Of a stretch of DNA of 64,000 nucleotides, positions 8,827 through 44,395 are shown one piece after another. Under the pieces are notes generated by a model. The model did no database searches. It worked only from the letters and a program-made list of their open reading frames with translations, and was not told where the DNA came from. Position 1 is the stretch's first letter. Each line of letters starts with the position of its first letter. The stretch comes from Peptococcaceae bacterium UBA5318. GTDB lineage: Bacteria > Bacillota > Peptococcia > DRI-13 > UBA5318. The position numbers and the translations under genes are program-made. The stretch lies in the NCBI GenBank assembly GCA_002408285.1, contig DHRG01000044.1, forward strand, positions 73,101 through 137,100, written 5' to 3'.

Positions 8827-8827
8827 G

Positions 8828-11330: not shown

Positions 11331-11335
11331 GTCTT

Positions 11336-13922: not shown

Positions 13923-13941
13923 AACTACTCCCTCCTTATGC

Positions 13942-27549: not shown

Positions 27550-27551
27550 GC

Positions 27552-29687
27552 TTAAATCCCCATTTCATCCAGCTTTTGCAGTTCATAGCGTTTGATGATA
27601 TCCATCAGCTTCAGCGGGTATTTGGAATCGGTGGCATATCCGGCTCTTTTCAAAGCCCAGGCTCCTTGAGTACTGTCGTGCATGACGTTTCTGAAAGGTT
27701 CATACCTTGCGGCAGTCAGCAAGAGGCGCTTATGGTCTGTCCAGCTCTCAGTCACACTGCGGTAGGCCCGAAACTCAGCATCAATGCGGAAAGTAGCGCC
27801 GTTATATTCTTCCCAGGTATTGGAGGTCACCGAACCGTTTGTTCCGCTTCCCTTTATGCCAAAGAGGTTATTGGACATCTTACCTGTATATTTATCTACC
27901 GGAACGCTTTGTCCCCAGCCTGTTTCCAGAATGGCCTGCGCTGTCTGCAGCGCCGCGGACATGCCTGTTGTCTGCCAGGATTGGCTTGCTAAACCGGAGG
28001 CCAGGTCTAAAAACAGATCCTTCTCTACGACAGGCTTGGCCGGATAGATTTTACCGAGATAAACTCGGAAAGATATTTTTTCACTGGCAGTTTTTGTTCC
28101 CGCAGCGGAAATTCCTTCCGCCTGGATGACCCATCCTCCTTCGTCGCCTTGCGCCGGCGTCCAGGTGTATTCGGCCTGAGGGTCTAGCCCTTGGGCGATC
28201 ACTTTTTTAGCCCCCGTTTGGGGATTGATCAAGAAGTATTGAATACTTTGCAAATCAACATTGCTGGTGACTTTCAGCTTAACCGGACCGGTCACAACCT
28301 GTTTCGGTCCTATCCCTTCCAGGATCAGCCTGGGAACGCCCGTCAGCATAACGCTCACGCTGTCACTGGTATAAGCGACGCCTCTGGTATCCTTAACCCT
28401 GACAAGCAATTCTTTTGCTCCTGTCCGCTCCGGACCGGGAAACCACTTGTAGTTTGCGTACCCGACAACTGCAAGGACTTCCTCGCTGCCTGTCTGGGGA
28501 TCTTTTAATATATATTCGGTCTGGCTCACCTGGAAGTTGCGGGATACCCATAAAGTGACAGGCTTTTCTATCGTACCGCCGGCTGTAACGCCTTTCAGCT
28601 CCAGTTTCCGCGTCACGTCGACCTTGCCGGTGATTTCTTGACTGGGATAGGCCTGTCCATTTTTATCATAAGCGGTTATTTTGAAAGAAACATTCCCGTT
28701 GTCCTCTATCAGCGGCGTCCATTGGTATACTCCCTGGGGATCGGCTTCGTCTGTCACAAATACTTGATTCTTGTCTTGACCGGCAATTTCATATTTCACA
28801 TATGAAGCGTTGAAATTGACGCTTGCCGCTAAGGAAACGCTGTCGGTTATTACTTGTCCCGGCACGACGCCGCCCAACGACACCTGGGGAACCACCGCCA
28901 ATTGAACGGAGATAGCGTCACCGGCTAGAAATCTTCCCGCCTGGTCATAAACGGCGGCCACAAGGACCCGTTGTCCCTTTTCTTCAACATTCGGCAACCA
29001 ACGGTATGTGCCGGTTATCGCGTTTCCCCTGGCAATAACCACACCGAGTCCTGTTTCGGGGCTCAGCAGGAGATATTTTATTTCGGCAGCGCCGGCAGGC
29101 GGGGTTCCCGGAAAGGAAACCTGCAGATTCGTAACCCCTGTAACCGCCTGTCCGGATTGTACGGATGATATTTTCATATCAAAAAAAGGAGTCATATTGG
29201 CCGTTTGGGAGGAATCCACATTAACGGTTCTGCCGGCGTCGTCCCAGTTCACCAAAACACCTAAAGCGTTGCTGACTAAACGAAGGGGTACGAAAGTACG
29301 ATCGCTCATAATTTGCGGCGGTACATCGCATACATTAAAAACTTGCTCTCCTGTCCGATACTCCACCAGATGGCTGTCGATCCTCAAAAGTACTGAGCGG
29401 CCGCCTTTTTGAATATGTACGGTCCTATCTTTTTCATTCCATTCCACCAGCGCTCCTAATTGTTCGGAGATCAAACGCACCGGCACTAATGTCCGGCCGT
29501 TTTGAATCACCGGCGCCGGTGTAGTCTTAATATTTTGACCATCCACCACCAGCTTTATATCATTAGCCGCAAACCCCTGAGGAACACTCCCTAACATAAA
29601 AACAAGCGCCAGGGCCAGCACGGCCGCCAGCTTACGGTTCAATCCCCGAAACCTTGCCTGCATTTTATCCACACCCCTTTTGTTCAA
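27552..29687 (-). CDS. Cell-wall hydrolase: copper-amine-oxidase-N wall-binding domain, four Ig-like repeats, C-terminal GH73 N-acetylglucosaminidase
   Basis: Signal peptide, then a CuAO-N repeat pair (VPVRLISEQLGALVEWN, VPLRLVSNALGVLVNWD). Four modules of about 93 aa follow. C-terminal glucosaminidase motif (AQAILETGWGQS ... NNLFGIKG ... YATD). Confidence 0.75.
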   Translation of the reverse strand: MNKRGVDKMQARFRGLNRKLAAVLALALVFMLGSVPQGFAANDIKLVVDGQNIKTTPAPVIQNGRTLVPVRLISEQLGALVEWNEKDRTVHIQKGGRSVLLRIDSHLVEYRTGEQVFNVCDVPPQIMSDRTFVPLRLVSNALGVLVNWDDAGRTVNVDSSQTANMTPFFDMKISSVQSGQAVTGVTNLQVSFPGTPPAGAAEIKYLLLSPETGLGVVIARGNAITGTYRWLPNVEEKGQRVLVAAVYDQAGRFLAGDAISVQLAVVPQVSLGGVVPGQVITDSVSLAASVNFNASYVKYEIAGQDKNQVFVTDEADPQGVYQWTPLIEDNGNVSFKITAYDKNGQAYPSQEITGKVDVTRKLELKGVTAGGTIEKPVTLWVSRNFQVSQTEYILKDPQTGSEEVLAVVGYANYKWFPGPERTGAKELLVRVKDTRGVAYTSDSVSVMLTGVPRLILEGIGPKQVVTGPVKLKVTSNVDLQSIQYFLINPQTGAKKVIAQGLDPQAEYTWTPAQGDEGGWVIQAEGISAAGTKTASEKISFRVYLGKIYPAKPVVEKDLFLDLASGLASQSWQTTGMSAALQTAQAILETGWGQSVPVDKYTGKMSNNLFGIKGSGTNGSVTSNTWEEYNGATFRIDAEFRAYRSVTESWTDHKRLLLTAARYEPFRNVMHDSTQGAWALKRAGYATDSKYPLKLMDIIKRYELQKLDEMGI

Positions 29688-29749: not shown

Positions 29750-29781
29750 TGAAAAAACAAACTACAGCATACGCTGTAGTC
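29750..29781 (-). terminator. Rho-independent terminator ending the hydantoinase-to-GcvPB operon
   Basis: The minus strand reads aaactacagcgtatgctgtagtttgttttttc. The stem is 29758-29768 / 29773-29780, and a T-run follows (plus-strand A-run 29752-29757). It lies 24 nt after the stop at 29805. Confidence 0.6.
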
Positions 29782-29804
29782 ACACGCCGTAGTTTTAATG
29801 GCAA

Positions 29805-31370
29805 TCATTTATACTTTTTCAAATAGGTCCGCCATGTGATGGCCCATTTGTCCGGATCATCCAGGCCTGACTCGTCTAATTGATGACATACGCTGTTGTA
29901 AGGCGCTGCTTTAATAATTCCCGGGTTCGTATAGGCCTCTTCAAAAATCCGTTTCAAGGCTTCAATATATTCATCAATATCTTTCTTGGAGGGGGTTTCT
30001 GTAGGCTCCAATGTCATTGGCTGGGGTACGTAATAGGGATGATGGCTGGTCCAAAAGTGCATCCCAAAATCCATCATTCTTCTTTGAATGTCCCCACTGG
30101 TAACTCCCGTTTCTCTGGTGAGTTTCTCAAGGGTATATCTGACCTGTTCGATTCTCTGTTTGCCTTTGCTGTATGGAGCGTCTATACAATCTAATTCCAT
30201 AAGTTTTTTAAACAGATAGTTATTATTTAAAACCGCGACCTTGGCTGTTTCATACAGCCCTTCAGCCCCCATAGACATGATCCAGGCATACGCCTTCAAA
30301 ACAACCGGGGCGACACCGTTAAAAAGTCTTATCTTTCCTATGCTAAAGGGGTTGTTTGTTATTTCATAGTTCAGAAAGTACTTTTCCCCATTATAATCAA
30401 TGAGCGGCGCAGGCAAATACTTTTCCAGTTTTTTTACAACACCCGTAGCTCCGACAGCCGGACCGCCGCATCCGTGGGGCGTGGAAAACGTCTTGTGTAA
30501 ATTAAAAAAACACATATCAAAGCCGGCCTCCCGGGCCCGGGTAATTCCCAGCAAGCCATTCGCATTCGCTTGATCATATCCGCAAAGTCCTCCGGCTTTA
30601 TGGATCAGACCCGTAAACTCTTGGATCCTGTGGTTATAAACGCCCGTATCTTCAGGATTCGCCACGATAAAGCCGGCGGTGCGTTCACTTACCGCTTTAT
30701 TAAATTGCTCAAAATCAGGGTATCCTTCCGCATCAGGATGGATATGGATAATCTTAAAACCCTTAACTGCAGGTGCAGCCGCATCGGAAGGATGGGAATA
30801 CAGAGTCGTAATTACTTCGTTTCTCTGACCCTCTTCGCCCTTTTCCTTATGATAGGCCCTCATCATGGAGGCTATGGCAAGAATTGCCTGGCTGCCGCCC
30901 CCGGGTTGAAAGCTAAAGCGGTCCATACCGGATATTTCTCTCATAAAAAGATCGGTTTTGTACATAATTTCCAAGATTCCCTGGACTGTTTCCTCATCCT
31001 GAAGAGGATGAAGCTCCGCCATCTCAGGCATTCTTGCCAATGCGTCATTGACCTTGGGGCTGTATTTAACAGTACACGTCCCCTGCCCGATTTCAATATT
31101 CACATCGGCGCCTAATGTTTCCTGAGATAATCTGGTATAATGCCGCAGAACTCTCGGCTGGGAAATTTCCGGAAGCTTTGGCGCCGCCTTTCTTTTCATC
31201 ATATCCGGCAGAACGGATACTCCATCCCCAACCACACATACTATTTCATCTTCTGCTTGGGGCACCAGGATGCCCCGCTCGCCTTTTTGGCTCAGCTCGA
31301 ATATGACCGGTTCGTCCCATTTAGCCTGATGAAATTTTCTTGCTTGGAAACTTCTATTAATCCTTTTCAT
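29805..31370 (-). CDS. Glycine-dehydrogenase (decarboxylating) subunit 2-like PLP enzyme (GcvPB-like)
   Basis: 521 aa with the PLP-lysine context FFNLHKTFSTPHGCGGPAVG, typical of GcvPB. Longer than canonical GcvPB as I recall it. Confidence 0.8.
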   Translation of the reverse strand: MKRINRSFQARKFHQAKWDEPVIFELSQKGERGILVPQAEDEIVCVVGDGVSVLPDMMKRKAAPKLPEISQPRVLRHYTRLSQETLGADVNIEIGQGTCTVKYSPKVNDALARMPEMAELHPLQDEETVQGILEIMYKTDLFMREISGMDRFSFQPGGGSQAILAIASMMRAYHKEKGEEGQRNEVITTLYSHPSDAAAPAVKGFKIIHIHPDAEGYPDFEQFNKAVSERTAGFIVANPEDTGVYNHRIQEFTGLIHKAGGLCGYDQANANGLLGITRAREAGFDMCFFNLHKTFSTPHGCGGPAVGATGVVKKLEKYLPAPLIDYNGEKYFLNYEITNNPFSIGKIRLFNGVAPVVLKAYAWIMSMGAEGLYETAKVAVLNNNYLFKKLMELDCIDAPYSKGKQRIEQVRYTLEKLTRETGVTSGDIQRRMMDFGMHFWTSHHPYYVPQPMTLEPTETPSKKDIDEYIEALKRIFEEAYTNPGIIKAAPYNSVCHQLDESGLDDPDKWAITWRTYLKKYK

Positions 31371-31389
31371 ATTTGCTTTCCTTCCCGCC

Positions 31390-32793
31390 TCAATTGTAAA
31401 GGACTTCTTCCAAGGCTAAAATAAGCTTATCAATATCAGTTTTGGTATGGATTTCCGTGACACAATATAGAGCGCATTGCCCAAATTCCGGAAACTCTGC
31501 CGATAAGTCTTTGCCTCCAAATATATTCTTGTGGAGCAATCCCTTATTGATTTCATGCACAGTCTTGCCTGTGGAATTAAAATCCACAATAAATTCCTTA
31601 AAATTGACGGAATTAAATCGCGAACCCACAACACCCCTAATCCCGTTAAGTTTTTTTACAGCATACTGGGATTTTTGAAGTATATTCCTCCCCAGTTCTT
31701 CCATGCCTTGAGGACCCATTGTCGCAAGGTAGACGCCGGCGGTAATGCCCCAAAGGGCGGTTTGAGTACCCACATATTCCTTGGCACGTTCCCGCAGGTG
31801 TCCGAAGGAAGTCCGGTCATAAGCCACATCACCGAACCCATACTCTCCTTCTACCACTGTAGGGACTATGCCAAAAAGCCTTGAGGGAAATTCCAGCACA
31901 TACTTTTTATCATCCATTGTTGCCATAAAACCCGCTTGACCCCCTCCATAGTTCATATGGATGCCAAGGGGCTGTAAATCGCCGCAAACAATATCCGCAC
32001 CGTAGCGGACAGGGGGTTCCAGCACTCCGAGGGAGCTGGGATCGACACCTACCACACATAGCCCGGATACCTGATGCACTATTTCGGCAATCTCGCGGCC
32101 ATTCATTTCAATAAAACCTAAATAAGAAGGATTTTCAAAATAGACTGCGGCTGTTTGGGCGGATATTTTTTTTTGTAAATCCTCTAAGTCCATCAGACCT
32201 GTATTTTCATCATATTCAACAGGCACTAACGATACGTCCGGGCTGCAGTAATTTTTCATGATCAGATACTTTTCATGATCCATTGCTTCGGGAACCAAAA
32301 CTTTTTTCCGGCCTGTTATTCTGGCGGCCATTCTCACGGCTGTCGCAGCCGCCTGAGCCCCATCCATCGTCGGAACATTTACAACCTCCATGTCCACCAA
32401 TTCCGCTACCAGGCTTTGGTATTCAAACAAAGACTGGAATCTTCCAAAGTCATTGTAAGGTTCCCCGCCATACGCCGTAAGGAACTCGCCCCTTGAATTT
32501 ATTTCATCACAGATCGCCGGCACATAATGCTGCCAGCAGCCTGCTCCCAGGAAATTCAGATACTCTTGACAGGTTTTATTTTTTTTCAATAACCCTTCAA
32601 TATGCCTTCTTAATTCATATTCGGACCGAAACGCCTTGGGAATATCCAGGCTTTTTAGTAGTTTCAACTCCTGAGGAACCTCATGATGTAAATCTTCCAG
32701 ACTAGCCAATCCAATTTCTTTTAACATTTCCTGTTGGACCTCAAAAACGGAGTTCGGTATATAGGGGTGATTTTTGAAACCCTTGCTATCCAT
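31390..32793 (-). CDS. Glycine-dehydrogenase subunit 1-like protein (GcvPA-like, divergent)
   Basis: Collinear with GcvPA (YLNFLGAGCWQHYVP, GADIVCGDLQPLG). The conserved region I recall as REQHIRRxKATSNIC reads RERAKEYVGTQTALW here. Start set at ATG 32793 with a GGAGGG 7 nt upstream. Confidence 0.75.
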   Translation of the reverse strand: MDSKGFKNHPYIPNSVFEVQQEMLKEIGLASLEDLHHEVPQELKLLKSLDIPKAFRSEYELRRHIEGLLKKNKTCQEYLNFLGAGCWQHYVPAICDEINSRGEFLTAYGGEPYNDFGRFQSLFEYQSLVAELVDMEVVNVPTMDGAQAAATAVRMAARITGRKKVLVPEAMDHEKYLIMKNYCSPDVSLVPVEYDENTGLMDLEDLQKKISAQTAAVYFENPSYLGFIEMNGREIAEIVHQVSGLCVVGVDPSSLGVLEPPVRYGADIVCGDLQPLGIHMNYGGGQAGFMATMDDKKYVLEFPSRLFGIVPTVVEGEYGFGDVAYDRTSFGHLRERAKEYVGTQTALWGITAGVYLATMGPQGMEELGRNILQKSQYAVKKLNGIRGVVGSRFNSVNFKEFIVDFNSTGKTVHEINKGLLHKNIFGGKDLSAEFPEFGQCALYCVTEIHTKTDIDKLILALEEVLYN

Positions 32794-32833
32794 GTTTTTC
32801 CCTCCATTACAAATCACGCGCCCGGCCATTCCT

Positions 32834-33808
32834 TTATAATAAACGGCATGCAACAAAATGTTTTGGGACGACTTCTTTTAATTCGATATTTTCTTCGGTA
32901 CAGACATTTTGCGCCATAGGGCACCTCTGAGCAAAGCGGCAACCCGGCTTGGGATTGATCGGGCTGACCACTTCTCCTTTAATAATCTGTTTTTCTTTTT
33001 TATTGTCACGAAAATCGAGGGTGGGTATCGCCGCTAATAACGCTTTGGTGTAAGGGTGTACCGGGTTTTGAAATAATTCGTCCGAAGGAGCTGTTTCAAC
33101 ACACTGGCCTAAATACATTACCGCGATCTCATCACTGATATGTTTAACTACGCTCAAATCATGGGTGATAAACATATACGTAAAACCCATACTTTCCTGT
33201 AAATCCATCATTAAGTTTAGTATTTGCGCTTGTATGGAAACATCAAGGGCCGATACCGGCTCGTCACATACAATGAATTTAGGATCCAAAGCTAAGGCTC
33301 TGGCAATGCCGATACGCTGTCTTCTGCCTCCATCCAGCTCGTGGGGATACGTATTGACAAACCGTTCTGCCAGTCCGACAGTTTCCATTAAATCGAACAC
33401 TTTATTATCAATCTCTCTGGAGTTTTTTATCGTCTTGCATACCTTGATAGGCTCCGCGATAATCTGGCTTACTGTCATGCGGGGATTTAACGATGAAAAC
33501 GGGTCTTGAAAGATGATTTGCATTTGCTTTCTCATTTCAAGCATTTTTTTATCATCATATTGTACGATATTATGCCCGTTGAATAAAACCTCCCCGTCTG
33601 TCGGCTCGATAAGCCGGAGTATAGCCCGGCCCAGCGTGGATTTCCCGCACCCCGATTCCCCGACCACCCCTAAGGTTTGGCCTTCCTTAATGGATATATT
33701 GACGCCGTCGACGGCGTGAAGGTTGCCTTTGGGAGTCTTAAAATATTTTTTTAAATTTTTAGTTTGAATTAACGGCACACTCATTAGATTCTTCCTCTCA
33801 TCAGGCAT
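32834..33808 (-). CDS. Peptide/opine/nickel-family ABC transporter ATP-binding protein (OppF-like)
   Basis: Walker A GESGCGKST, signature-region LDGGRRQRIGIARAL, Walker B IVCDEP, and the C-terminal oligopeptide-type extension. Confidence 0.85.
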   Translation of the reverse strand: MPDERKNLMSVPLIQTKNLKKYFKTPKGNLHAVDGVNISIKEGQTLGVVGESGCGKSTLGRAILRLIEPTDGEVLFNGHNIVQYDDKKMLEMRKQMQIIFQDPFSSLNPRMTVSQIIAEPIKVCKTIKNSREIDNKVFDLMETVGLAERFVNTYPHELDGGRRQRIGIARALALDPKFIVCDEPVSALDVSIQAQILNLMMDLQESMGFTYMFITHDLSVVKHISDEIAVMYLGQCVETAPSDELFQNPVHPYTKALLAAIPTLDFRDNKKEKQIIKGEVVSPINPKPGCRFAQRCPMAQNVCTEENIELKEVVPKHFVACRLL

Positions 33809-34772
33809 ATTTAAAAAGATGGCATCTGATCATGTGATCGTTTTTGGTAACGCTTTGGGGCTTTTTTGTTTTGCAAATTTCCATACATTTCGGGCAGCGG
33901 GCATGAAACACGCAGCCTTTTGGCAGATTTGTCGGATCCGGCATCAATCCCTCAATGGGATTCAATCTTCTGGTTTTCTTTGTCATATCGGGGATGGAAC
34001 CGAATAAACCTACGGTATAAGGGTGATGATCGGCGCTTTCAAATATGTCTTTCACACTGCCTAATTCAATGATTTCTCCTGCGTACATGATCGCCACTTT
34101 ATCGCAGGTTTGGGCCACCACGCCCAAGTCGTGGGTTATTAAGATCATCGCCATATTGAATTTATCTTTAAGCCCTTTCATCAACTCCAGTACCTGGGCC
34201 TGGATTGTTACATCCAAAGCTGTGGTAGGTTCATCCGCCAATAATAACTTGGGTTCGCAGGCCAGCGCGATCGCTATAACAACCCTTTGCTTCATACCGC
34301 CTGAAAACTGGTGGGGATACTCATTTTTCCTTTCGGGCGGCAATCCTACAAGCTTAAGGATCTCATCCACTTTAGCAGATATTTGGGCTTTGCTCATTTT
34401 GTTGTTGTGCAGTTCCAAAACCTCATAGATTTGATAACCGATAGTCAAAACAGGATTCAAGCTGGTCATGGGATCCTGAAAGATCATAGACATACTGTTT
34501 CCCCTGACCAATCGCATATCGGCTTCCGATAACTTTGTAATATCATGCTCTTCAAATTGTATTCGCCCATTTTTTATCAGCCCGATTCTATCAGGAAGCA
34601 GCTTCATAATACTTAGTGCGGTCGTCGTTTTTCCCGCTCCGGTTTCACCGACCAGCCCTAAGGTTTCTCCTTTATTAACAACCAAGTCAAGGCCGTTTAC
34701 AGCATATACTGTCGCCTCATCCGTTTCATATACAACATGTAGGTCTTTGATTTCCAATAGTTTTTCTGACAT
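33801..34772 (-). CDS. Peptide/opine/nickel-family ABC transporter ATP-binding protein (OppD-like)
   Basis: Walker A GETGAGKT, signature FSGGMKQR, Walker B LLADEPTTALD. Confidence 0.85.
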   Translation of the reverse strand: MSEKLLEIKDLHVVYETDEATVYAVNGLDLVVNKGETLGLVGETGAGKTTTALSIMKLLPDRIGLIKNGRIQFEEHDITKLSEADMRLVRGNSMSMIFQDPMTSLNPVLTIGYQIYEVLELHNNKMSKAQISAKVDEILKLVGLPPERKNEYPHQFSGGMKQRVVIAIALACEPKLLLADEPTTALDVTIQAQVLELMKGLKDKFNMAMILITHDLGVVAQTCDKVAIMYAGEIIELGSVKDIFESADHHPYTVGLFGSIPDMTKKTRRLNPIEGLMPDPTNLPKGCVFHARCPKCMEICKTKKPQSVTKNDHMIRCHLFKYA

Positions 34773-34797
34773 AGTTTTACTCCTATATTCTCATTCT

Positions 34798-35694
34798 TCA
34801 ATTTTTCAACCTTGGGTCCAGCGCATCACGCAAACCATCACCAATAAGGTTTAGCGATAATACCGCCAATACGATCGCTATTCCCGGAACAACGACCAGG
34901 TACGGATAATACCTCATCTGGCTTTTACCATCCGCCAGCATAGTGCCCCATTCCGGTGTCGGCGGCTGGATCCCAAGGCCGATGAAACTTAATCCCGCAA
35001 CAACTAAGATCGTCGTCGCCATGCTTAACGTTGCCTGTACGATGATAGGTCCAATGGCATTAGGAATAATATGCCGTAATATGATCCTTCTGTCCTTTGT
35101 GCCGCACGCCCTGGCCGCCTCAATAAAATCCTGCTCCTTCACGGATAATATTGCCGAACGCACGACGCGCGCAAATTGCGGCGTTCGGGAAATACTCAAG
35201 GCAATCAGGATGTTTATCAAGCCCGTTCCTAAAGACGCCACGATCGCTATCGCGATAATGGTGGCGGGGATGGCTAAAAATACGTCCATAATACGCATGA
35301 TAATGTTATCAATCTTCCCGCCGTAATACCCTGCCGTCGCGCCGATCAAAGATCCCAATGTCAGGGCTATGGAGATCGTAAACAAACCTACGAACAACGA
35401 TATTCTGCCCCCGTAAATTATTCTGGCAAACATATCCCGGCCAAACTGGTCTGTACCAAAGGGATGGTCCCAACTGGGCCCTAAAAACATGGCTTTCATA
35501 TCCTGCGTTTCGACGTCAGCTTCATAGTCCAGGTATAGCCCTGCCGTTGAAACAATTATAATTAATATCACCAAGATAACAAAACCAAACATGGCAAGTT
35601 TATTTTTTTTGAATTTATGAAAGATTGCTTTTAACTGGCTCCGTTTTTTTACGCTTGATTTTAGATTTATAACATGTTCTGACATGTTTATCAC
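34798..35694 (-). CDS. ABC transporter permease (OppC-like)
   Basis: 298-aa 6-TM permease with an EAA-type loop (FIEAARACGTKDRRIILRHIIPN). Confidence 0.85.
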   Translation of the reverse strand: MINMSEHVINLKSSVKKRSQLKAIFHKFKKNKLAMFGFVILVILIIIVSTAGLYLDYEADVETQDMKAMFLGPSWDHPFGTDQFGRDMFARIIYGGRISLFVGLFTISIALTLGSLIGATAGYYGGKIDNIIMRIMDVFLAIPATIIAIAIVASLGTGLINILIALSISRTPQFARVVRSAILSVKEQDFIEAARACGTKDRRIILRHIIPNAIGPIIVQATLSMATTILVVAGLSFIGLGIQPPTPEWGTMLADGKSQMRYYPYLVVVPGIAIVLAVLSLNLIGDGLRDALDPRLKN

Positions 35695-36629
35695 CTACTA
35701 CCTTTTACATATTGTGACTTGATCCTGGGATCAATAAAGATGTACAAAATGTCGACAATCAAAGTAATCAGCCCCCCGATAAGCGCAATACACGTAACGG
35801 TCGCGATTAACACCGGGGTATCTTTCGCCCTGACAGCCCCTATCATTAAAGTACCCAAACCCGGTATAGCAAAAACTGCCTCGATTACAACAGCGCCTCC
35901 AAGCAAAATTCCAAAGTTTACACCTACTAATGTGATAACCGGTAACAACGCATTCCTGAGCGCGTGGATAAAAATAATCCTTTTTTCATTTCCCCCTTTA
36001 GCCTTTGCCGTCCGTATATAGTCTTGTCTGATAACTTCCAGCATGGTCGACCTGGTCATTCTGATCAAAGTCGCCATCGTCCCTGCGGCCAGCGTTATAC
36101 TTGGCATAATAAAATGCTTCATCGAATCTATTCCCGTCGCAGGCAACAGGTCTAATCGGAGCGAGAAAAAAAGGATCATCATCAAACCTAACCAGAAACC
36201 CGGGATCGACGTCAATAAAAGCGCTGCTATCAGAGTGACATTATCGATGATCGTATACTGTTTTACCGCGGATAAAACACCTATAGGTATGCCGATAAAT
36301 ACAGCCAAGGTCATACCCAAAAAGGTTAATTTCAAAGTAGTAGGAAGCCTTGAGCCCACCTCATTAGAAACAGGAAGATTATTCCTGTACGACTTACCGA
36401 AATCCCCCGTTACCGCGCCTTTAACATACGTGCCAAACCTGACAAAAAAGTTTTCATTAAGGCCCATTTCTTCTCTCAAAGCGTCTATATCCTCTTGAGC
36501 GGCGTATTCGCCCAAAATCAACCGTGCAGGGTCCCCGGGCGTGAAATCCATAATAGTAAATATAATAAACGCTACGCCGATCAAGACGGGTATCATCATT
36601 AAAAGCCTTTTTGAAATATACTTAAACAT
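35691..36629 (-). CDS. ABC transporter permease (OppB-like)
   Basis: Starts MFKYISKRLLMMIPV, a typical OppB/DppB N-terminus. ATG 36629 is preceded by GGGAGG. EAA loop YIRTAKAKGGNEKRIIFIHALRNA. Confidence 0.85.
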   Translation of the reverse strand: MFKYISKRLLMMIPVLIGVAFIIFTIMDFTPGDPARLILGEYAAQEDIDALREEMGLNENFFVRFGTYVKGAVTGDFGKSYRNNLPVSNEVGSRLPTTLKLTFLGMTLAVFIGIPIGVLSAVKQYTIIDNVTLIAALLLTSIPGFWLGLMMILFFSLRLDLLPATGIDSMKHFIMPSITLAAGTMATLIRMTRSTMLEVIRQDYIRTAKAKGGNEKRIIFIHALRNALLPVITLVGVNFGILLGGAVVIEAVFAIPGLGTLMIGAVRAKDTPVLIATVTCIALIGGLITLIVDILYIFIDPRIKSQYVKGSR

Positions 36630-36704
36630 TTTACCTCCCGTGAGGTTCAAATAGGTATATTATTCATATACCTATTTGAACTTCCATCATTTATTATATA
36701 TTAC

Positions 36705-38246
36705 TTATTCGGCCCAGGAATAATCATAACAGTACAGCTTATTGACCGGACTAGCGGCGACGCCCAGCAGATCTTTATGGGCCGCGACACGTCTTCTGCC
36801 ATTGTAGACAGGTATTAAAATGCTTTCTTCTTTCACTAATTCACAAATTTGTCTAAATACCTCATTTCTTTCAGTCCCGGTGGTAATTCTGGATTTTTCT
36901 AATAGGGCGTCCATTTCGGGTAAATTACAGAGAGCGAAATTTCCGTTTCCGTTTCTCATAGAACTATGAAAAGCGGCATATGTGGCAAAATCAGGGTCTG
37001 ACGTTGTAATCGGCATCGCCCAGAAGGTGATCTCATATTTTCCGCCCGCGATGCAATCAGCCTGCCAAGCCGCCCATTCCATTTTTTCTATGTTGGCAGT
37101 GATGCCAATTGCTTTCAACTGCTGCTGGATTATTTCAGAAGGCTTAGAATAGGTCGCTGACTCAGCCGTTTTGAAGGTTACGGTAAATCCATTGGGATAT
37201 CCGGCTTCCGCCAGTATTTGTTTGCCTTTTTCAGGATCATACGGATTTGCTTTAAAATCTTTCGGGTAGGCATCCAGTGTAGGAACCATAGCCGCCTCCA
37301 CGACTTCGCCTTCGCCGTTCAACGCTCCCAGCAGAACCGCTTCCCGGTCGATCGCATAGCTTACGGCTTCTCTGACCTTCTTGTTGCTGAATATGCCTTT
37401 CTCATTGTTAAAGGAAATCAAGTAATAACACGGCATTTCTACTTCATAATATTTTAAATTTTGATTGGCTTTTACATTAGGTACGTCCGCAATTTGCAGA
37501 ACGTCCCGTAAATCTGTTTCGCCCTTTTCCAGTGATAACACCGCTGTAGTATTATCGCTCATGATCCTGTAGGTAACATTCTTGATCGCAGCTTCGCCGC
37601 GATAATAATCGGCAAAGCTTTCAAATATCACCCTGTCCCCGCTTCTCCATTCCTTCAGCATATACGGCCCTGTTCCCACGGGATTTCGCGCAAAACCTTC
37701 CGGATCCGCTTCAACGGCTTTTTTACTTACGATCATCATGTTGCCGGATGACATACATCCTATAGCAGCCGGGAAGGGGAATTTTAACTTCAGTTTCACT
37801 GTGCTTTCATCAATTTTCTCGGCAGCCTCCATAGAACTCGTAACTTTTTTGGTTGCCGGTGCGGCAATGGAACGGTTGATCGAAAAAACAACGTCTTCCG
37901 CCGTCAACGTATCCCCGTTATGGAATTTGACATTGGGCCTGATTTTGAATGTGATTTCCTTATTATCCTCAGACACTGTCCAGCTTTCCGCAAGAGCGGG
38001 TACTAATTTTCCGTCGATCTCTTCCCGCACTAGCCCATCATAGATTTGATAATGGTATTTTTGTGATTCGCTGTCATTAGCTTTGACGGGATCCATGGAA
38101 GAAGCCTCGCCAACAATACTGTACACCAGGCTGTCTTTTTTGGCAGCATCCCCGCTGCCGTTATTAGCGGAGCCGCCGCAGCCCGGCAAAAGAAAGACTG
38201 CTATCAACGCCCAAGTCAGAACCAACATTACCCTCTTCTTTTTCAT
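36705..38246 (-). CDS. Family-5 (peptide/opine/nickel) extracellular solute-binding lipoprotein
   Basis: Lipoprotein signal (LLPGCGGS) and SBP_bac_5-type sequence, 513 aa. Confidence 0.85.
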   Translation of the reverse strand: MKKKRVMLVLTWALIAVFLLPGCGGSANNGSGDAAKKDSLVYSIVGEASSMDPVKANDSESQKYHYQIYDGLVREEIDGKLVPALAESWTVSEDNKEITFKIRPNVKFHNGDTLTAEDVVFSINRSIAAPATKKVTSSMEAAEKIDESTVKLKLKFPFPAAIGCMSSGNMMIVSKKAVEADPEGFARNPVGTGPYMLKEWRSGDRVIFESFADYYRGEAAIKNVTYRIMSDNTTAVLSLEKGETDLRDVLQIADVPNVKANQNLKYYEVEMPCYYLISFNNEKGIFSNKKVREAVSYAIDREAVLLGALNGEGEVVEAAMVPTLDAYPKDFKANPYDPEKGKQILAEAGYPNGFTVTFKTAESATYSKPSEIIQQQLKAIGITANIEKMEWAAWQADCIAGGKYEITFWAMPITTSDPDFATYAAFHSSMRNGNGNFALCNLPEMDALLEKSRITTGTERNEVFRQICELVKEESILIPVYNGRRRVAAHKDLLGVAASPVNKLYCYDYSWAE

Positions 38247-38356
38247 AAGTTTAACCTCCTAAATCATTTTTTAACGCATGCCCTGGGATAAAAAGTATAG
38301 GTTAGTTATTCCTTGCGTTCCTCCTTTCAGGTGATAATCGTTGTTCGTAAGATCAA

Positions 38357-39475
38357 TCAAAACATATGAGGCTTATCCCATAATTTCAATTTTGTGCCTA
38401 TTCCTAAGCGTAAAGCATTTTGATATATTTCATAACTCCAGGCTACATCTTCTACGGACATTCCGGACATCACAAATATTACCTTTTCTTTTTTATTGAC
38501 TCTTCCCGCCTTATTTCCCGCGACTACATCACCCAAATTGATGATGCCGTCGGCAGTCATTTCTCCAGCATCTATATAATCCAATACCCTGCCGCAGATA
38601 GAGCCAAGATAATTTTTATAACCGCCCGGCATCCCTTTATATTCATCATGCCAGGCTTCGTACATCGCCCAATTATCCACAACCAGCTTGGTATTGATAA
38701 TAAACTCTTTAGATAAATTGGCGCCGGCCGGCATTGATATCAAGACGCCGTCTTTAAGCCACTCATCTTTAATTTCAGGCTTCACGCTCCCTGATGTCGC
38801 GGTATTTACAATATCCGCATCTCTAACAGCTTCTTCAATACTGTCCACCGGATAAATATCTACGTCATACTGTTGCTTAATGATCTCGCATAGTCTTTTG
38901 GCCGAAGCGGGGAAAATATCATATACCTTCACCTGCTTGATATTTTTTAAAGACAGAAGCAGCGCCATCAAACATGTCCGGTTGATTACTCCTGCGCCTA
39001 CTAATCCAATGACCTGCGAATCTTTGTTCGCTAAATATTTGGCCCCGACCGCAGGTATGGCGCCGGTTCTCATCGAGCTGATTAAATTAGCCGACATATA
39101 GGCCAGGGGCGCTCCTGTGTCGGCGTCGTTCAAAGTCGCCATCAATATGGAGCGGGGATATCCTTTTTCACCATTAGCCCGGTTGGAACCGTACCATTTT
39201 TCTCCGCAGACATTAAAGCGTCCGCCCAAATAGGATATTAGAACCATAAACCTCCTATCCGGTCCGGCGATAGGCATATTAGGAAAGGGTGAGCTATCCG
39301 GAAATAACAATCTCATCCCGTGGGAATTCTTATTTTTTCCGCCCATTACATAATCGCCTTTACCCAACAGGTCAAACATCTCTTCCATTACCTCAATGCA
39401 TCTGTCCATATCGGTAACACCGGCTTTAAGCATATCTTCCTCCGATAAATATGTGAATTCTATTTTGGTGTCCAT
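38357..39475 (-). CDS. Ornithine cyclodeaminase / mu-crystallin family NAD(P)-dependent enzyme
   Basis: 372 aa with the Rossmann motif VIGLVGAGVINRT in the position typical of the OCD/mu-crystallin family. N-terminal substrate domain present. Confidence 0.7.
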   Translation of the reverse strand: MDTKIEFTYLSEEDMLKAGVTDMDRCIEVMEEMFDLLGKGDYVMGGKNKNSHGMRLLFPDSSPFPNMPIAGPDRRFMVLISYLGGRFNVCGEKWYGSNRANGEKGYPRSILMATLNDADTGAPLAYMSANLISSMRTGAIPAVGAKYLANKDSQVIGLVGAGVINRTCLMALLLSLKNIKQVKVYDIFPASAKRLCEIIKQQYDVDIYPVDSIEEAVRDADIVNTATSGSVKPEIKDEWLKDGVLISMPAGANLSKEFIINTKLVVDNWAMYEAWHDEYKGMPGGYKNYLGSICGRVLDYIDAGEMTADGIINLGDVVAGNKAGRVNKKEKVIFVMSGMSVEDVAWSYEIYQNALRLGIGTKLKLWDKPHMF

Positions 39476-39520
39476 CTATTCTCCCCCTTTGACAACGCAT
39501 TACTGCTGTTAATTTTTAAT

Positions 39521-41137
39521 TTATTTTACTTTTCCTTCAGCTATATCTTTTTTTCTGCTTTCTACGGAACGTTTGGAAGGATCGCCGTATCCGCCTCCGC
39601 CGGCCGTAACCAGTTCGATCAAGTCGTCGGCCCTAAGAGGGAAACCATTGACTTTATTTAAGGTATTGATCCGTTTTCCATCCCGGATGACATTTAACCG
39701 TGCGCCGGCGGCATATTTCCCGCCTAACAGTCCCCACGGCCTTGTTTTAGTCCGCTCGGTCGCCGCTAAAAGCTCGGTATTTTTACTCTCGTCAAGGATC
39801 CTTATACCTCTGATAATTCCCAGACCGCCCCTGTATTCCCCGTCACCCCCGCTGTTTTCAGCCAAGGCATACTTTTCAACTAACAACGGATATTCCATTT
39901 CTAACGCTTCCACCGGCAGGTTAGAAGTGTTGGTCATATGCACCTGCACCGCATCTAACCCGTCTTTATTAAATCTGGCCCCGGAGCCCCCGCCTATCGT
40001 TTCCAGGTATACATAGGGTTTGCCGGTCCTGCTGTCAAAACCCGAAAAGTTAAAAAATGAAACAGCTCCATTACCCGCCGCGGTTACTTTGATCGGATCA
40101 ATTTTTGCAAAGGCGCCGAATATAACGTCCGCAATTCTTTGGGTAGTCGTAGCTCTCGATTGGGTCGGCGCGGGTTCCGTGGAACATACCAATGTCCCCT
40201 CCCTGGCAGTCACATCTATACTTTCAAAAGCTCCGGCATTGGCGGGCATCGTATTGTCCATTAAACACTTTACAGCATAATACACGGTCGCCAGCAAAGC
40301 GTTTCTAATACAATTGAAAGACCCCGTAACCTGCTCACAGCTTTCCGTAAAATCGAAATCTATTTTTTCGCCTTGGATAATAATTTTTAATTTGATTAGC
40401 AGATCTTCCGTTTTATTGCCATCGTCATCCAAATAATCTTCAAACTCATAGATACCGTCAGGCAATTGCTTAATGGACTGCCTTGCTTTTCTTTCTCCGT
40501 ACTTCAGCCATTCCCGGCAAAAATCCGTATAAGTATCTATGCCTATCTTGTCGATCAGTTCAATGATCTTGTTTTCGCCGAACTGGTTGGCGATTAACTG
40601 GGCCCGCAAATCGCCTTTCCTTTCTTCTTTCAACTGAAAATTCAACATGATCAAATCATAGACGTCTTTGACTAATTTATCTTTTTCATACAATTTAATG
40701 ATGGGAATCCTGAGGCCTTCGTCGTATATCGTACTCCTCCTGATGTTTCTGTCGGCATGATGACCGGTGTTTACCGCAAAAGCGATCAACTCGCCCTTAT
40801 AAAATACCGGTTTGACCAAGACGATGTCCGGCAAGTGCGAACCTCCGCCTGAATAGGGATCGTTCCCGATAAAAGTATCCCCTTCGTAGATATCATTGAT
40901 ATTCCACTTATTAAGAACCTCACTGACGGCGCCCAGCAACGAACTGAAGTGCAACGGTATATGCTGCGCCAGTGTGATCAGCTTGCCATTTTTATCAAAC
41001 AACGCTACCGACAGGTCTTTACGTTCCTTTATATTTGTGCTGTATCCCGTTTTAGTGAGAATGACTCCCATCTGTTCGACGATCGAAAGAAGGGAATTAC
41101 TGATGACTTCTAGTGTGACCGAATTTATTGTTCCCAC
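39521..41137 (-). CDS. Hydantoinase B / oxoprolinase family subunit (HyuB-like)
   Basis: 538 aa with Hydantoinase_B-type sequence (NDPYSGGGSHLPD, GGGSGA, GGGGYGDP). Confidence 0.85.
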   Translation of the reverse strand: MGTINSVTLEVISNSLLSIVEQMGVILTKTGYSTNIKERKDLSVALFDKNGKLITLAQHIPLHFSSLLGAVSEVLNKWNINDIYEGDTFIGNDPYSGGGSHLPDIVLVKPVFYKGELIAFAVNTGHHADRNIRRSTIYDEGLRIPIIKLYEKDKLVKDVYDLIMLNFQLKEERKGDLRAQLIANQFGENKIIELIDKIGIDTYTDFCREWLKYGERKARQSIKQLPDGIYEFEDYLDDDGNKTEDLLIKLKIIIQGEKIDFDFTESCEQVTGSFNCIRNALLATVYYAVKCLMDNTMPANAGAFESIDVTAREGTLVCSTEPAPTQSRATTTQRIADVIFGAFAKIDPIKVTAAGNGAVSFFNFSGFDSRTGKPYVYLETIGGGSGARFNKDGLDAVQVHMTNTSNLPVEALEMEYPLLVEKYALAENSGGDGEYRGGLGIIRGIRILDESKNTELLAATERTKTRPWGLLGGKYAAGARLNVIRDGKRINTLNKVNGFPLRADDLIELVTAGGGGYGDPSKRSVESRKKDIAEGKVK

Positions 41138-41149
41138 GAATTTTACCCC

Positions 41150-43198
41150 CTATTTTTCTTGTTCAATAACGATATTCAAATATTCATCTACTACGCCTAT
41201 TTGGTTTTCACCAATTATCGTTGTAGCGTCCATTTGTTCAATAACAGCAGGACCGCGGAGTTTGTTCCCATTATTTAGCATATCCCGGTCATACAATGTA
41301 TACGGTTTCATGCGGTTTTGTCCGTCGCGGACCAGCCTTTCACCTCTAATCGCGGCGGATGAATCCTCCCCGTAATATTTACTGGGAATGGTTTTAGGCT
41401 TATTGATGTAACCGATGGCCGACAACCCATAATTGATGATCTGCACCTCATCATCATAAGAATAGGAATACAGTTGTTTATACGCTTTATTAAATTCATC
41501 AATGATATCCTGGATCTTTTTGACTTTTTGTTTGTCATAGCTCACTAATATTTCATAATTCTGCCCTTTATACCTCATATCCAAATAGTATTCGCACACT
41601 CTGCGGGCCGGGGGTATGGCTTCAAATTCAAACCAAGCTTCAGCCTCTTTTTCAAGCTTTTGGAATTCATGCTCAATATCTTCAAATTGGATTTTCCCCA
41701 GGTCCATAACATTTGTCTGAACAAAATCCCTTCTCATATCTTCTACCAATAAACCATAGGCGGCTAGAATCCCCGGGGTTCTTGGAATGATCGCTTTCGC
41801 GATACTGAGCTCTTCCATAAGTTCGGCGGCGTGCAGCGGACCGGCCCCGCCAAAGGCGAACAAGACAAACTCATTAGGATTGAATCCTTTTTCCACCGTT
41901 ACTTTTTTTATTTCTTTGATGATGTTGGAATTTCCCACAGTAATGATCCCTTGGGCCGTTTCATAGATATCCATATTGATTTTTTTAGACAGCTTTTCAA
42001 CTGCGGTAAAAGAATTGCCGCTATTGATAGGTAATCGACCGTTTAAAAGCTCTTTATTGTTTAAGTGGCCTAGTACGACTCGCGCATCTGTTATGGTGGC
42101 TTCTTCACCGCCCCTATCGTAGCAAGCCGGCCCTGGTTCAGCCCCCGCGCTCTGCGGCCCGACTTTGAGGATTCCTCCGCTGTCGACCCAGGCAATGCTG
42201 CCCCCGCCTGCCCCAATTGTCGCAATATCCACTGATGGGATCCTAACCGGGTATCCGCTGATGTTTTTATCCTTGGAGCTGTCGATTTTACCGTCAATAA
42301 TCAGGCTCAGATCCGTACTTGTTCCGCCGATATCTATCGTTAAAACATTCTTATATCCTATCAAGCCTGTAACATATTGAGCGCCGATAACGCCGGCCGA
42401 AGGGCCGGACAAGCTTGTTTTGATGGGATACTGGGAAGCTTCACTCAGGGACATGATGCCCCCGTTGGAATGATTGATGTACAATTTATTTATATTGATT
42501 TTCGTTAACGTACCTTTTAAATTCTCCAGATATTTCTTGACTTCCGGTCCGATAAAAGAATTCAGAACGGTTCCGCACATCCTTTCGAACTCCCGGAATT
42601 GATTCGATATTTCACTCGATATTGAAAGATAAACATCCGGCAGATATTCTTTGGCGATCCTCTTCACTATTTGCTCATTCGTGGGATTAATGTAGGCATT
42701 TAAAAAAGTAACGGCTAGGGATTCAACCTGCAGCTCCTTTAATTTCCTGATGATTTCGATCACTTCGGCTTCATCTAACTCTCGTATGATCTTGCCTTTG
42801 TAATCCATTCTTTCTTTCACTTCATATCGTAAATCCCTCGTTATTAACACTTTGGGCTTGTCTGCCTGCAAATCATATAAATCTGGTCTTTTCTGCCTGC
42901 CGATTTCCAATAAGTCACGGAATCCTTCGGTAGTAATTAAGGCGGTTCTGGCCCCTCTGCCTTCTAATATCGCATTCGTTGATACAGTTGTGCCGTGAAT
43001 AAACCTATCGATCTCATCTAAAGCAAAACCATACTTTTCAGCTAATGATCTGATCCCTTCAATCACTGCCTGCGACTGATCCTTCGTTGATGACGGCAGC
43101 TTGTATACCTTCAGCTCGCTGGTAATTTCGTCAATTGCGCAAATATCCGTATTGGTCCCGCCCACGTCTACCCCGACTCTATATCTTTTATTCGCCAC
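41150..43198 (-). CDS. Hydantoinase A / oxoprolinase family ATPase subunit (HyuA-like)
   Basis: 682 aa with an ASKHA-fold N-terminus (VGVDVGGTNTD) and Hydantoinase_A core (DIGGTSTD). GTG start with GAGGAG 8 nt upstream. Confidence 0.85.
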   Translation of the reverse strand: MANKRYRVGVDVGGTNTDICAIDEITSELKVYKLPSSTKDQSQAVIEGIRSLAEKYGFALDEIDRFIHGTTVSTNAILEGRGARTALITTEGFRDLLEIGRQKRPDLYDLQADKPKVLITRDLRYEVKERMDYKGKIIRELDEAEVIEIIRKLKELQVESLAVTFLNAYINPTNEQIVKRIAKEYLPDVYLSISSEISNQFREFERMCGTVLNSFIGPEVKKYLENLKGTLTKININKLYINHSNGGIMSLSEASQYPIKTSLSGPSAGVIGAQYVTGLIGYKNVLTIDIGGTSTDLSLIIDGKIDSSKDKNISGYPVRIPSVDIATIGAGGGSIAWVDSGGILKVGPQSAGAEPGPACYDRGGEEATITDARVVLGHLNNKELLNGRLPINSGNSFTAVEKLSKKINMDIYETAQGIITVGNSNIIKEIKKVTVEKGFNPNEFVLFAFGGAGPLHAAELMEELSIAKAIIPRTPGILAAYGLLVEDMRRDFVQTNVMDLGKIQFEDIEHEFQKLEKEAEAWFEFEAIPPARRVCEYYLDMRYKGQNYEILVSYDKQKVKKIQDIIDEFNKAYKQLYSYSYDDEVQIINYGLSAIGYINKPKTIPSKYYGEDSSAAIRGERLVRDGQNRMKPYTLYDRDMLNNGNKLRGPAVIEQMDATTIIGENQIGVVDEYLNIVIEQEK

Positions 43199-43313
43199 TG
43201 TTTTTTCTCCTCACATTTTTGAAATGATTGACACATCCTAATCACACCAAAGTTCAATCACTACGATAGATCATGCGCATCCTTCCTTTCTTTACAACCC
43301 ATTAATATGGTTA

Positions 43314-43329
43314 AGCAAATAACATGCCA
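43314..43329 (-). promoter_or_regulatory. Sigma-54 (-24/-12) promoter for the hyuA operon
   Basis: The minus strand reads TGGCATGTTATTTGCT against the consensus TGGCACG-N4-TTGCW. GG and GC are exactly 12 nt apart. It lies about 115 nt upstream of the hyuA start, and a sigma-54 activator gene is encoded divergently. Confidence 0.65.
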
Positions 43330-43400
43330 ATATGCGAATATATGGTTATGGTGGTTTTTATGCCTGATAACTACAAAATAGCGTTGTCAATTTGCATCAT

Positions 43401-43416
43401 GTTGCTTTTTTGCAAC
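43401..43416. promoter_or_regulatory. Palindrome GTTGC-N6-GCAAC, candidate activator-binding site (UAS)
   Basis: Perfect 5+5 inverted repeat about 75-90 bp upstream of the -24 element. Further TTGCA half-sites occur at 43392-43396 and near 43495-43500. Confidence 0.25.
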
Positions 43417-44364: not shown

Positions 44365-44395
44365 ACTACGAAACTATGCAGAGGTGAGAAACACC

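Follow-up and report, generated by a model that had tools for sequence, protein, structure and literature searches.

The aga system of Agrobacterium Ti plasmids brings together, within one regulon, an Opp-type ABC importer with a family-5 substrate-binding protein (SBP; AgaA), an oxidoreductase and a HyuA/HyuB-like enzyme pair. Agropinic acid is a lactam opine, an N-substituted 5-oxoproline that is ring-opened and then cleaved at its C-N bond, and Lyi, Jafri and Winans reportedly proposed in 1999 that the aga genes open the agropinic-acid lactam and then cleave the resulting secondary amine. Here we describe an operon in which an importer, an oxidoreductase and a HyuA/HyuB-like pair likewise occur together, located in a 64,000-nucleotide stretch (hereafter the window) of contig DHRG01000044.1 from Peptococcaceae bacterium UBA5318. 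The operon comprises ten genes, is preceded by a sigma-54 promoter and a divergent pair of regulatory genes, ends with two genes for a glycine decarboxylase P-protein, and probably imports and degrades a pyroglutamate-like ring compound containing glycine.

The ten open reading frames (ORFs) are consecutive on the minus strand (43198-29805), with hyuA first and the gcvPB-like gene last. With a single sigma-54 promoter, a single terminator and little space between its genes, the locus has the architecture of one transcription unit, and on the sequence evidence both the operon and its sigma-54 control are very likely real. The starts of four genes were taken from gene calls on an independent assembly of identical sequence (L029, Logan), as indicated among the features below, where RBS stands for ribosome-binding site and OCD for ornithine cyclodeaminase:

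41150-43198, minus strand: hyuA-like gene, alpha subunit of an ATP-dependent lactamase/hydantoinase, 682 amino acids (aa); Pfam Hydant_A_N, Hydantoinase_A and Hydant_A_C
39521-41137, minus strand: hyuB-like gene, beta subunit, 538 aa; Pfam Hydantoinase_B, 565 bits
38357-39475, minus strand: OCD/mu-crystallin-family NAD(P) oxidoreductase, PRK06199 subfamily, 372 aa; Pfam OCD_Mu_crystall
36705-38246, minus strand: family-5 SBP, 513 aa; Pfam SBP_bac_5
36642-36684, minus strand: SBP-permease intergenic hairpin, 19 bp, without a U-run; -23.7 kcal/mol, z-score -5.45
35691-36629, minus strand: ABC permease, OppB/GsiC-like, 312 aa; Pfam BPD_transp_1_N and BPD_transp_1; start from the Logan gene call and a visible RBS
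34798-35685, minus strand: ABC permease, OppC/GsiD-like, 295 aa; Pfam OppC_N and BPD_transp_1; Logan gene call
33801-34772, minus strand: ABC ATPase, OppD-like, 323 aa; Pfam ABC_tran and oligo_HPY
32834-33784, minus strand: ABC ATPase, OppF-like, 316 aa; Pfam ABC_tran and oligo_HPY; Logan gene call
31390-32793, minus strand: GcvPA-like, glycine decarboxylase P-protein subunit 1, 467 aa; NCBIfam NF001696; Logan gene call
29805-31370, minus strand: GcvPB-like, P-protein subunit 2, 521 aa; NCBIfam NF003346
29759-29795, minus strand: intrinsic terminator, a hairpin with a 15-pair stem followed by the T-run GTTTTTT

A preliminary description of this DNA had counted eleven genes while itself naming ten, and ten are found; its call of a sigma-54-driven operon of these enzyme classes is supported, and its domain assignments all hold in Pfam and NCBIfam. 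The short gaps that it reported are likewise present, with the range of 3 to about 110 nt corrected to 5 to 110 nt when the Logan gene calls are used, and the Hydantoinase_A and Hydantoinase_B genes lie side by side, 12 nt apart, as in the two-subunit family. The hairpin and T-run at 29759-29795 are indeed the sole clear terminator, no further terminator-like site with a strong stem being present inside the operon. We considered the SBP-permease hairpin as an internal terminator and rejected it: because it has no U-run and leads straight into the permease RBS, we read it as a stabiliser, and this element 3' of the SBP gene probably stabilises the mRNA or helps process it, raising SBP expression. 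A search of Rfam for a riboswitch or other RNA element gave no match in the leader or the operon. DNA sequencing runs containing the locus derive from fermentation, biogas, landfill and soil metagenomes. The host is an uncultured, Peptococcales-like member of the Bacillota from fermenters, whose Ffh shares 75% identity with that of a 'Firmicutes HGW-12' metagenome-assembled genome and 73% with that of one from the Peptococcales.

The regulatory region between the operon and its divergent neighbours contains the following features:

43314-43329, minus strand: sigma-54 (-24/-12) promoter, TGGCATGTTATTTGCT, of the form TTGGCAT-N5-TTGCT, ahead of hyuA
43382-43416, minus strand: candidate upstream activator/operator block, 35 nt, comprising the palindrome GTTGCAAAAAAGCAAC (43401-43416) plus ATGATGCAAATTGACAACG
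43501-44364, plus strand: RpiR-like SIS-domain protein, 287 aa, divergent from the operon; Pfam SIS only, 71 bits
44396-45451, plus strand: sensor-less sigma-54 enhancer-binding protein (EBP), 351 aa; Sigma54_activat (218 bits), AAA_lid_14 and HTH_50

With its flanking bases the promoter reads TTGGCATGTTATTTGCTT (43312-43330), shows the correct spacing between the -24 GG and the -12 GC, and shares its form with mapped C. difficile SigL promoters (PMC7438776). Two matches to the strict pattern TGGCA-N6-TTGCW are present in the 64-kb window, where 0.26 would be expected. In a relative about 97% identical, found in biogas-fermenter metagenomes (L282/L283), the TGGCA and TTGC of the promoter are unchanged while the flanks vary, and the 35-nt block at 43382-43416 is identical despite diverged intergenic surroundings. 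Furthermore, a homologous promoter stands at the same position beside homologous SIS and EBP cassettes on three other contigs (L278, L279/L280), where a GTTGCA-N5-6-CAAC palindrome is also found upstream of the -24/-12 promoters; in the window, as in L279, the palindrome lies about 80 bp upstream of the -24 element. Because the regulator cassettes share promoter and palindrome, and because the promoter core and the 35-nt block are unchanged in L282, we consider the promoter call well supported. The near-consensus -24/-12 promoter of the preliminary description is thus borne out by its sequence, by its conservation in L282 and by the EBP gene, which is the strongest local support for it and had been overlooked. 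A second -24/-12 match, TGGCAGGCTGATTGCA (37052-37067, minus strand), was rejected as an internal sigma-54 promoter and is read as a chance occurrence, since it lies within the SBP coding sequence and the relative has CTGC for its TTGC through a synonymous change.

The EBP gene lies directly downstream of the SIS gene. Its product can be aligned with PrdR over the C-terminal part of the latter only (residues 268-577) and consists of AAA+ and helix-turn-helix (HTH) domains with no sensory domain; its Walker A and B motifs are intact, as is a GSFTGA loop, a variant of GAFTGA, as expected of a sigma-54 activator. The GSFTGA form is listed among the variants of Clostridiales EBPs (PMC6615313). As for the SIS protein, the SIS part of the earlier RpiR/SIS assignment stands and the RpiR part is weak, with a 37-bit MurR/RpiR match in NCBIfam over residues 19-243 and Pfam HTH_6 undetected; one homologue, P0245, does have PF01418. 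The protein is very rare: of the candidates scored from a 5.8-billion-protein database, only five reach E<=1e-10 as homologues. We read the genomic contexts of two of the four non-self homologues, on the three contigs mentioned above, and in each case found a SIS gene (41-44% identical to that of the window), a gap of about 30 nt and a short EBP gene (50-56% identical), with a divergent TGGCAC-N5-TTGCT promoter facing the cassette. The cassettes span 43501-45451 in the window, 1611-3539 in L278 and 823-2150 in L279, and the target in L278 is a divergent AlaDh_PNT_N-family gene. No SIS-EBP fusion of the 'Rosetta stone' kind was found among the five SIS homologues.

Judged from these arrangements, the SIS and EBP genes look like a conserved two-gene regulatory device. 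PspF/PspA, HrpRS/HrpV and NifA/NifL are established cases in which a sensor-less EBP is controlled in trans by a partner encoded in an adjacent gene, and the window EBP resembles them in consisting of AAA+ and HTH domains only and in having a putative partner next door; it differs in that this partner, proposed from gene adjacency, is an RpiR-like SIS protein, which to our knowledge is not a described partner class for sensor-less EBPs. In such a device effector sensing, and with it control of the EBP, probably falls to the SIS protein, and one of the two proteins probably binds the conserved GTTGCA-N6-GCAAC site upstream of the -24 element.

The genes under this control form, as far as sequence comparison can tell, a lineage-specific mosaic of modules that are found separately in other bacteria, a view to which we are led by an operon that appears real and selected for while its full set is confined to one relative. 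All ten genes are under purifying selection: they are intact in L282, with ratios of nonsynonymous to synonymous substitution rates (dN/dS) of 0.07-0.15. Scans of genome contigs, using the OCD protein, the SBP and an alignment of HyuB, and of metagenome contigs, using the SBP, retrieved no locus with the full set, and HyuB as a single query of the genome contigs gave no matches. OCD homologues 42-56% identical are present in 28 genomes and never stand beside the full set.

Among the modules, the importer is defined by its SBP, whose best solved relatives are 5u4o, GsiB/YliB (1uqw) and AgaA (6hlx), so that AgaA ranks within the top three; no ligand was traced for 5u4o. HbpA (3m8u, 3tpa), which we take to be a glutathione binder, is also among the closest solved relatives. 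Scores against models of specific binders all remain below the cut-offs, at 208 bits of 594 for GsiB, 196 of 393 for NikA, 130 of 947 for OppA and 177 of 800 for CntA. Scans of the whole genome and metagenome contig collections gave no SBP homologue above 37% identity; the best homologue found, 45% identical, is encoded in L022 by a truncated gene immediately preceded by an OCD gene under GntR regulation. This neighbourhood suggests that the imported compound itself is what the OCD enzyme works on.

For the HyuAB pair, ATP-dependent lactam hydrolysis is given as family chemistry in two reports (PMC8453981, PMC11033972). HyuA scores best in NCBIfam against caprolactamase alpha (CapA; 518 bits, cut-off 1000), HyuB reaches 290 bits against CapB (cut-off 1000), and models of acetophenone carboxylase (Apc) subunits give 118-298 bits against cut-offs of 1250-1500, all below the respective thresholds. 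Among solved structures, both subunits come closest to entry 7hk5, named N-methylhydantoinase, followed for HyuA by 6yra. HyuB orthologues 61-72% identical occur in Clostridia, and at about 45 genome loci (HyuB 61-69% identical), as well as in the closest non-self contig, the gene order is (lysR)-hyuA-hyuB-nhaC. These cassettes, exemplified by Lientehia hominis NSJ-141 and Emergencia timonensis, encode true HyuAB orthologues (both subunits 61-69% identical, in the same order) and differ from the window in their LysR regulator, in a secondary transporter of the NhaC family and, in many cases, in an AlaDH/PNT-like gene; none of the roughly 45 loci has an OCD gene or GcvP. Free 5-oxoproline is an obvious candidate substrate of such a cassette. 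The loci in question (L118-L161, L173, L186-L189, L195, L364) belong to Clostridia of gut, rumen and caecum, including Lachnospiraceae, Oscillospiraceae, Anaerovoracaceae and the two species just named. About 15 of them contain the AlaDH/PNT-like gene, which was ruled out as a true alanine dehydrogenase with 264 bits against a cut-off of 392.

The OCD protein belongs to the subfamily of NCBIfam NF004848 (472 bits, cut-off 362) and scores poorly as a true ornithine cyclodeaminase: the equivalog NF005762 gives 82 bits against a cut-off of 350, and P. putida OCD (1u7h) aligns only over residues 95-246. Matches to SbnB_fam (170 bits, cut-off 327) and ala_DH_arch (145 bits, cut-off 409) also stay below threshold. 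The solved structures nearest to it are those of Pyr2C reductase, SbnB, which acts in L-2,3-diaminopropionate (L-Dap) synthesis for staphyloferrin B, and archaeal alanine dehydrogenase, enzymes that share its OCD/mu-crystallin fold, lie in other subfamilies and carry out NAD(P)-dependent oxidation or reduction at the C-N bond alpha to a carboxylate. Given these relatives and the failure of true OCD models, we read the window enzyme as an NAD(P)-linked dehydrogenase.

Adjacency of hyuAB and an OCD gene recurs in four other Bacillota loci with differing transporters and regulators (L015, L017, L163, L164). In L017, on contig JAVBWO010000028.1, the set is accompanied by a LysR regulator, and nearby Opp ATPases are 52-53% identical to those of the window. 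In L015, from a Bacillota metagenome-assembled genome (MAG; 965-13368), genes for an RpiR regulator, an enolase-like and a glycerate-kinase-like protein face OCD, hyuA, hyuB, octopine-dehydrogenase-like, OTCase-like and carbamate kinase genes, a cluster resembling a pathway for the fermentation of ureides or hydantoins in which ATP is recovered via carbamoyl phosphate. The two Bacillaceae loci, L163 and L164, both have an EBP upstream of hyuA-hyuB-OCD; in L163 (Mesobacillus maritimus, 2599-14248) a PrpR_N-PAS EBP faces genes for a TAXI-TRAP SBP, a fused DctQM permease, HyuA, HyuB and an SbnB-like OCD protein, together with a 464-aa protein that has no Pfam or NCBIfam match, making it the second hyuAB-OCD operon associated with sigma-54, here with another type of transporter. 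Elsewhere hyuAB also adjoins genes for other amino-acid- or opine-type dehydrogenases, namely the octopine-dehydrogenase-like gene of L015 and the below-cut-off AlaDH/PNT-like genes. Within the OCD subfamily the most frequent pairing is with a GltS-like gene of the glutamate symporter family (nine of 19 loci), followed by RpiR (5 loci) and EBP genes (4). In three Lachnospiraceae loci (L023, L025, L027) the OCD gene lies among genes for a PrpD-like protein, two CN-hydrolases, a dihydroorotate/dihydropyrimidine-dehydrogenase-like Fe-S protein and a molybdenum hydroxylase, a context that suggests a role in N-heterocycle degradation and a functionally diverse subfamily.

Finally, the two genes at the 3' end encode subunits that score above the cut-offs of the P-protein equivalogs (GcvPA, NF001696, 480 bits, cut-off 364; GcvPB, NF003346, 549 bits, cut-off 441). 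In an alignment with T. thermophilus GcvPB (1wyt, E 1.4e-81), the window's GcvPB retains the NLHKTF motif, which presumably bears the pyridoxal phosphate lysine. Orthologues of GcvPB 72-81% identical occur in Clostridia and Desulfobacterota, and the three modules that we read (L115, 5645-12697; L116, 6442-15022; L117, 6506-12687), from Crassaminicella thermophila, a metagenome contig and a Desulfobacter MAG, consist of a divergent gene for an EBP of about 585 aa followed by gcvPA-like (467 aa), gcvPB-like (522 aa) and NAD-kinase-like (about 369 aa) genes, with no gcvT or gcvH within 10 kb among the called genes. We found no description of such a module. It is sigma-54-associated like the window's pair and has its own EBP and NAD-kinase-like gene, both of which the window lacks, the window's gcvPAB being joined instead to the end of the transporter genes. 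The L115 module lies 5 kb from glycine reductase (grd) genes. Beside the L116 module (576-6311) is an frl-like set with an SBP_bac_1 ABC system, a 341-aa SIS protein and an AP_endonuc_2 (sugar epimerase-like) protein; frl-like genes are typical of Amadori-compound catabolism, and this single case could be a coincidence. Synonymous divergence (dS) from L282 is 0.20-0.28 for gcvPA and gcvPB (29805-32793 against L282 12534-15522) and 0.05-0.17 for the other eight genes, and this roughly twofold excess hints at a different history or recombination at the operon's 3' end.

Taken together, these assignments allow the following route to be proposed. The GsiB/AgaA-like ABC system would import a small glutamate-derived conjugate; HyuAB would spend ATP on opening its 5-oxoproline-type, pyroglutamate-like lactam, free or N-substituted; the OCD-family enzyme, acting as an NAD(P)-linked dehydrogenase and not as a cyclodeaminase, would oxidise the glutamate-type (secondary) amine to 2-oxoglutarate and an amine or amino acid; and the glycine part of the substrate would be decarboxylated by the GcvPA/PB P-protein, with H, T and L proteins encoded elsewhere. 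The operon would then be an anaerobe's NAD-linked counterpart of the aga system, with a glycine-decarboxylase module acquired in addition from a distinct sigma-54 unit. We put this enzymatic logic forward tentatively, as somewhat less than an even bet when taken as a whole, and would regard any single named substrate as improbable. The broader proposal, in which the SIS protein and EBP make up an undescribed two-piece sigma-54 activator that drives an anaerobic, NAD-linked pathway for a glycine-containing glutamate-lactam conjugate, is doubtful as a conjunction; within it, the AAA+ activator possibly leaves ligand sensing to the SIS protein, a polypeptide of its own, and is gated by it at a GTTGCA-N6-GCAAC enhancer, and an N-substituted 5-oxoproline of opine-like or Maillard type may be the substrate. 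The preliminary description had favoured a cyclic-amide or an opine/Amadori-like conjugate, of which the cyclic-amide and opine parts gain support from the aga-system relatives of HyuAB and of the SBP, and the Amadori part finds no direct support, the operon containing no kinase or deglycase gene. In agreement with its statement that no pathway with this gene set is known, we found none in the literature searched, and a survey of Clostridiales sigma-54 regulons does not mention the operon's genes.

Several observations weigh against import and degradation of a glycine-containing lactam conjugate. Co-conservation of the full set extends to a single species-level relative and no further, so that the gene-neighbourhood test named in the preliminary description fails for hyuAB-OCD-opp-gcvP and returns only hyuAB with OCD. 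The nearest HyuAB orthologues keep company with NhaC-type transporters, which fits free 5-oxoproline or a small amino-acid-like lactam just as well. The SBP is only 30% identical to AgaA, the lactam-opening role of the aga HyuAB-like genes was itself reportedly assigned from sequence similarity by Lyi, Jafri and Winans in 1999, and the name carried by NF004848, 'tyramine oxidase subunit B', could be traced to no paper in the literature searched. Moreover, there is no gcvH, gcvT, peptidase or amidase among the ten genes, and the locus appears in no RNA runs.

A quite different explanation, to which we give a minority but appreciable share of belief, is that there is no single pathway and that peptide-like uptake, a 5-oxoprolinase, an amino-acid dehydrogenase and glycine decarboxylase, each with its own substrate, are independent functions of amino-acid and peptide fermentation co-expressed under one sigma-54 switch. 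Each module is indeed met alone elsewhere (hyuAB with nhaC, OCD with a GltS-like gene, and the EBP-gcvPA-gcvPB-NAD-kinase-like unit), the whole set is restricted to one lineage, in an island between rnhB and comM adjacent to an IS66 element, and gcvPA and gcvPB exceed the other genes in dS. This explanation is, however, less easily reconciled with the tight spacing, single promoter and single terminator, with strong purifying selection on all ten genes, with the recurrence of hyuAB-OCD in four other lineages and of OCD-SBP in L022, or with a dedicated, rare regulator pair, which implies one specific inducer. If the ring compound were instead derived from glutathione, the operon would serve salvage of gamma-glutamyl peptides in a bacterial gamma-glutamyl cycle: GsiB-like import, release of 5-oxoproline and Cys-Gly by enzymes encoded elsewhere, conversion of 5-oxoproline to glutamate by HyuAB as 5-oxoprolinase, oxidation of glutamate by the OCD-like dehydrogenase and consumption of glycine by GcvPAB. 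Such a scheme would explain why glycine and 5-oxoproline-type enzymes share an operon, and it draws on the membership of HyuAB in the 5-oxoprolinase/lactamase family and on an SBP whose best-scoring named NCBIfam match is GsiB and whose solved relatives include GsiB/YliB and HbpA; yet the GsiB score of 208 is far under the cut-off of 594, the operon encodes no gamma-glutamyl transferase, cyclotransferase or dipeptidase, and the OCD enzyme, which the L022 adjacency suggests to act on the imported compound, has no obvious role in it, and we consider it unlikely.

Two further substrates are suggested by the names of the closest HyuAB matches. The resemblance of both subunits to N-methylhydantoinase (7hk5) would suit creatinine degradation, in which HyuAB opens N-methylhydantoin, the OCD-like enzyme turns sarcosine into glycine and GcvPAB consumes this end product; but we know of no OCD-family sarcosine dehydrogenase, the operon has no N-carbamoylsarcosine amidase gene, and a family-5 SBP would be unusual for so small a neutral ring. 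In addition, Clostridium sp. FS41, the single anaerobe in which the process has been studied, relies on sarcosine reductase and on an enzyme that is ATP-independent (PMC4417704), and creatinine is in our view very unlikely. Hardly any weight can be given to the opening of an ornithine or lysine lactam by HyuAB followed by a true cyclodeaminase yielding proline or pipecolate: although caprolactamase alpha is the best NCBIfam model for HyuA (518 bits) and the OCD family does include ornithine and lysine cyclodeaminases, the caprolactamase scores fall far short of the cut-off of 1000, matches to models and structures of true OCD and of lysine cyclodeaminase are weak and confined to the N-terminal half, and glycine decarboxylase would be left without a role.

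Should the operon indeed serve a glycine-containing lactam conjugate, it would provide strict anaerobes of digesters and guts with an oxygen-independent route for stable 5-oxoproline-type conjugates such as pyroglutamate derivatives, lactam opines and Maillard products, a pool of carbon and nitrogen whose anaerobic fate is poorly known, and it would be the first tie of the glycine-cleavage P-protein to lactam catabolism. All the enzyme families are known and only their combination is confined to one lineage; the most original by-products of the analysis are the pair of SIS protein and sensor-less EBP with its recognisable operator and the stand-alone sigma-54 module of gcvPAB with an NAD-kinase-like gene. 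Along with hyuAB-nhaC, these make up three reusable and largely unstudied modules, the gcvPAB unit being one without T and H proteins. Even if the functions proved independent, the locus would still show how a sigma-54 operon is assembled from modules beside an insertion sequence (IS) element.

The surroundings of the operon bear on this assembly. The genes around the cluster are otherwise of the housekeeping kind, with rnhB on one side and comM/yifB on the other; its G+C content is slightly below that of its flanks, and an intact IS66-family transposase gene (504 aa, 45477-46991, minus strand), within which the Logan assembly breaks, abuts the EBP gene. The IS66 element, the rnhB/comM flanks and the lower G+C suggest that 27.5-47 kb of the window is an acquired island, and the operon was probably acquired horizontally. 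Just downstream of the operon (26773-29687), and in the same position in L282, are two genes with copper-amine-oxidase N-terminal domains, one of them fused to a glucosaminidase and probably encoding a cell-wall hydrolase. Farther away, near 58 kb, the GC skew changes sign from negative to positive, coinciding with a 1971-aa ORF (58012-63927, minus strand).

Of the systems known, aga is the nearest analogue of the operon. Plasmid matches to HyuB are headed by two Paracoccus replicons, followed by Agrobacterium Ti and Ri plasmids (170 Agrobacterium records), and at about 77.3-87.9 kb of the octopine Ti plasmid NC_002377 a HyuA/HyuB-like pair follows an FAD oxidoreductase gene and faces an Opp-type ABC operon. 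We take these genes to be agaE, agaF and agaG, with AgaE as the FAD oxidoreductase, and we take the Ti-plasmid SBP to be AgaA because the window SBP matches it and the solved agropinic-acid binder AgaA (6hlx) with near-equal scores (188 and 189 bits). Identity between the window and this region is 43% for HyuA, 44.6% for HyuB and 30% for the SBP. The aga oxidoreductase is FAD-dependent and presumably oxygen-linked, whereas that of the window is of the unrelated NAD(P)-type OCD family; the aga genes form two divergent operons with fused ATPases and no GcvP, in contrast to one operon that includes gcvPAB. The stretch of the Ti plasmid that we viewed has no annotated sigma-54 activator, and close to the aga genes is one for a DeoR/GlpR-family regulator; the respective hosts are an aerobic alphaproteobacterium and an anaerobe. 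By sequence comparison, then, the window operon appears to be an analogue of the aga system and not a member of it, the oxidoreductase family being different, and relative to aga its regulation and its GcvP module are new.

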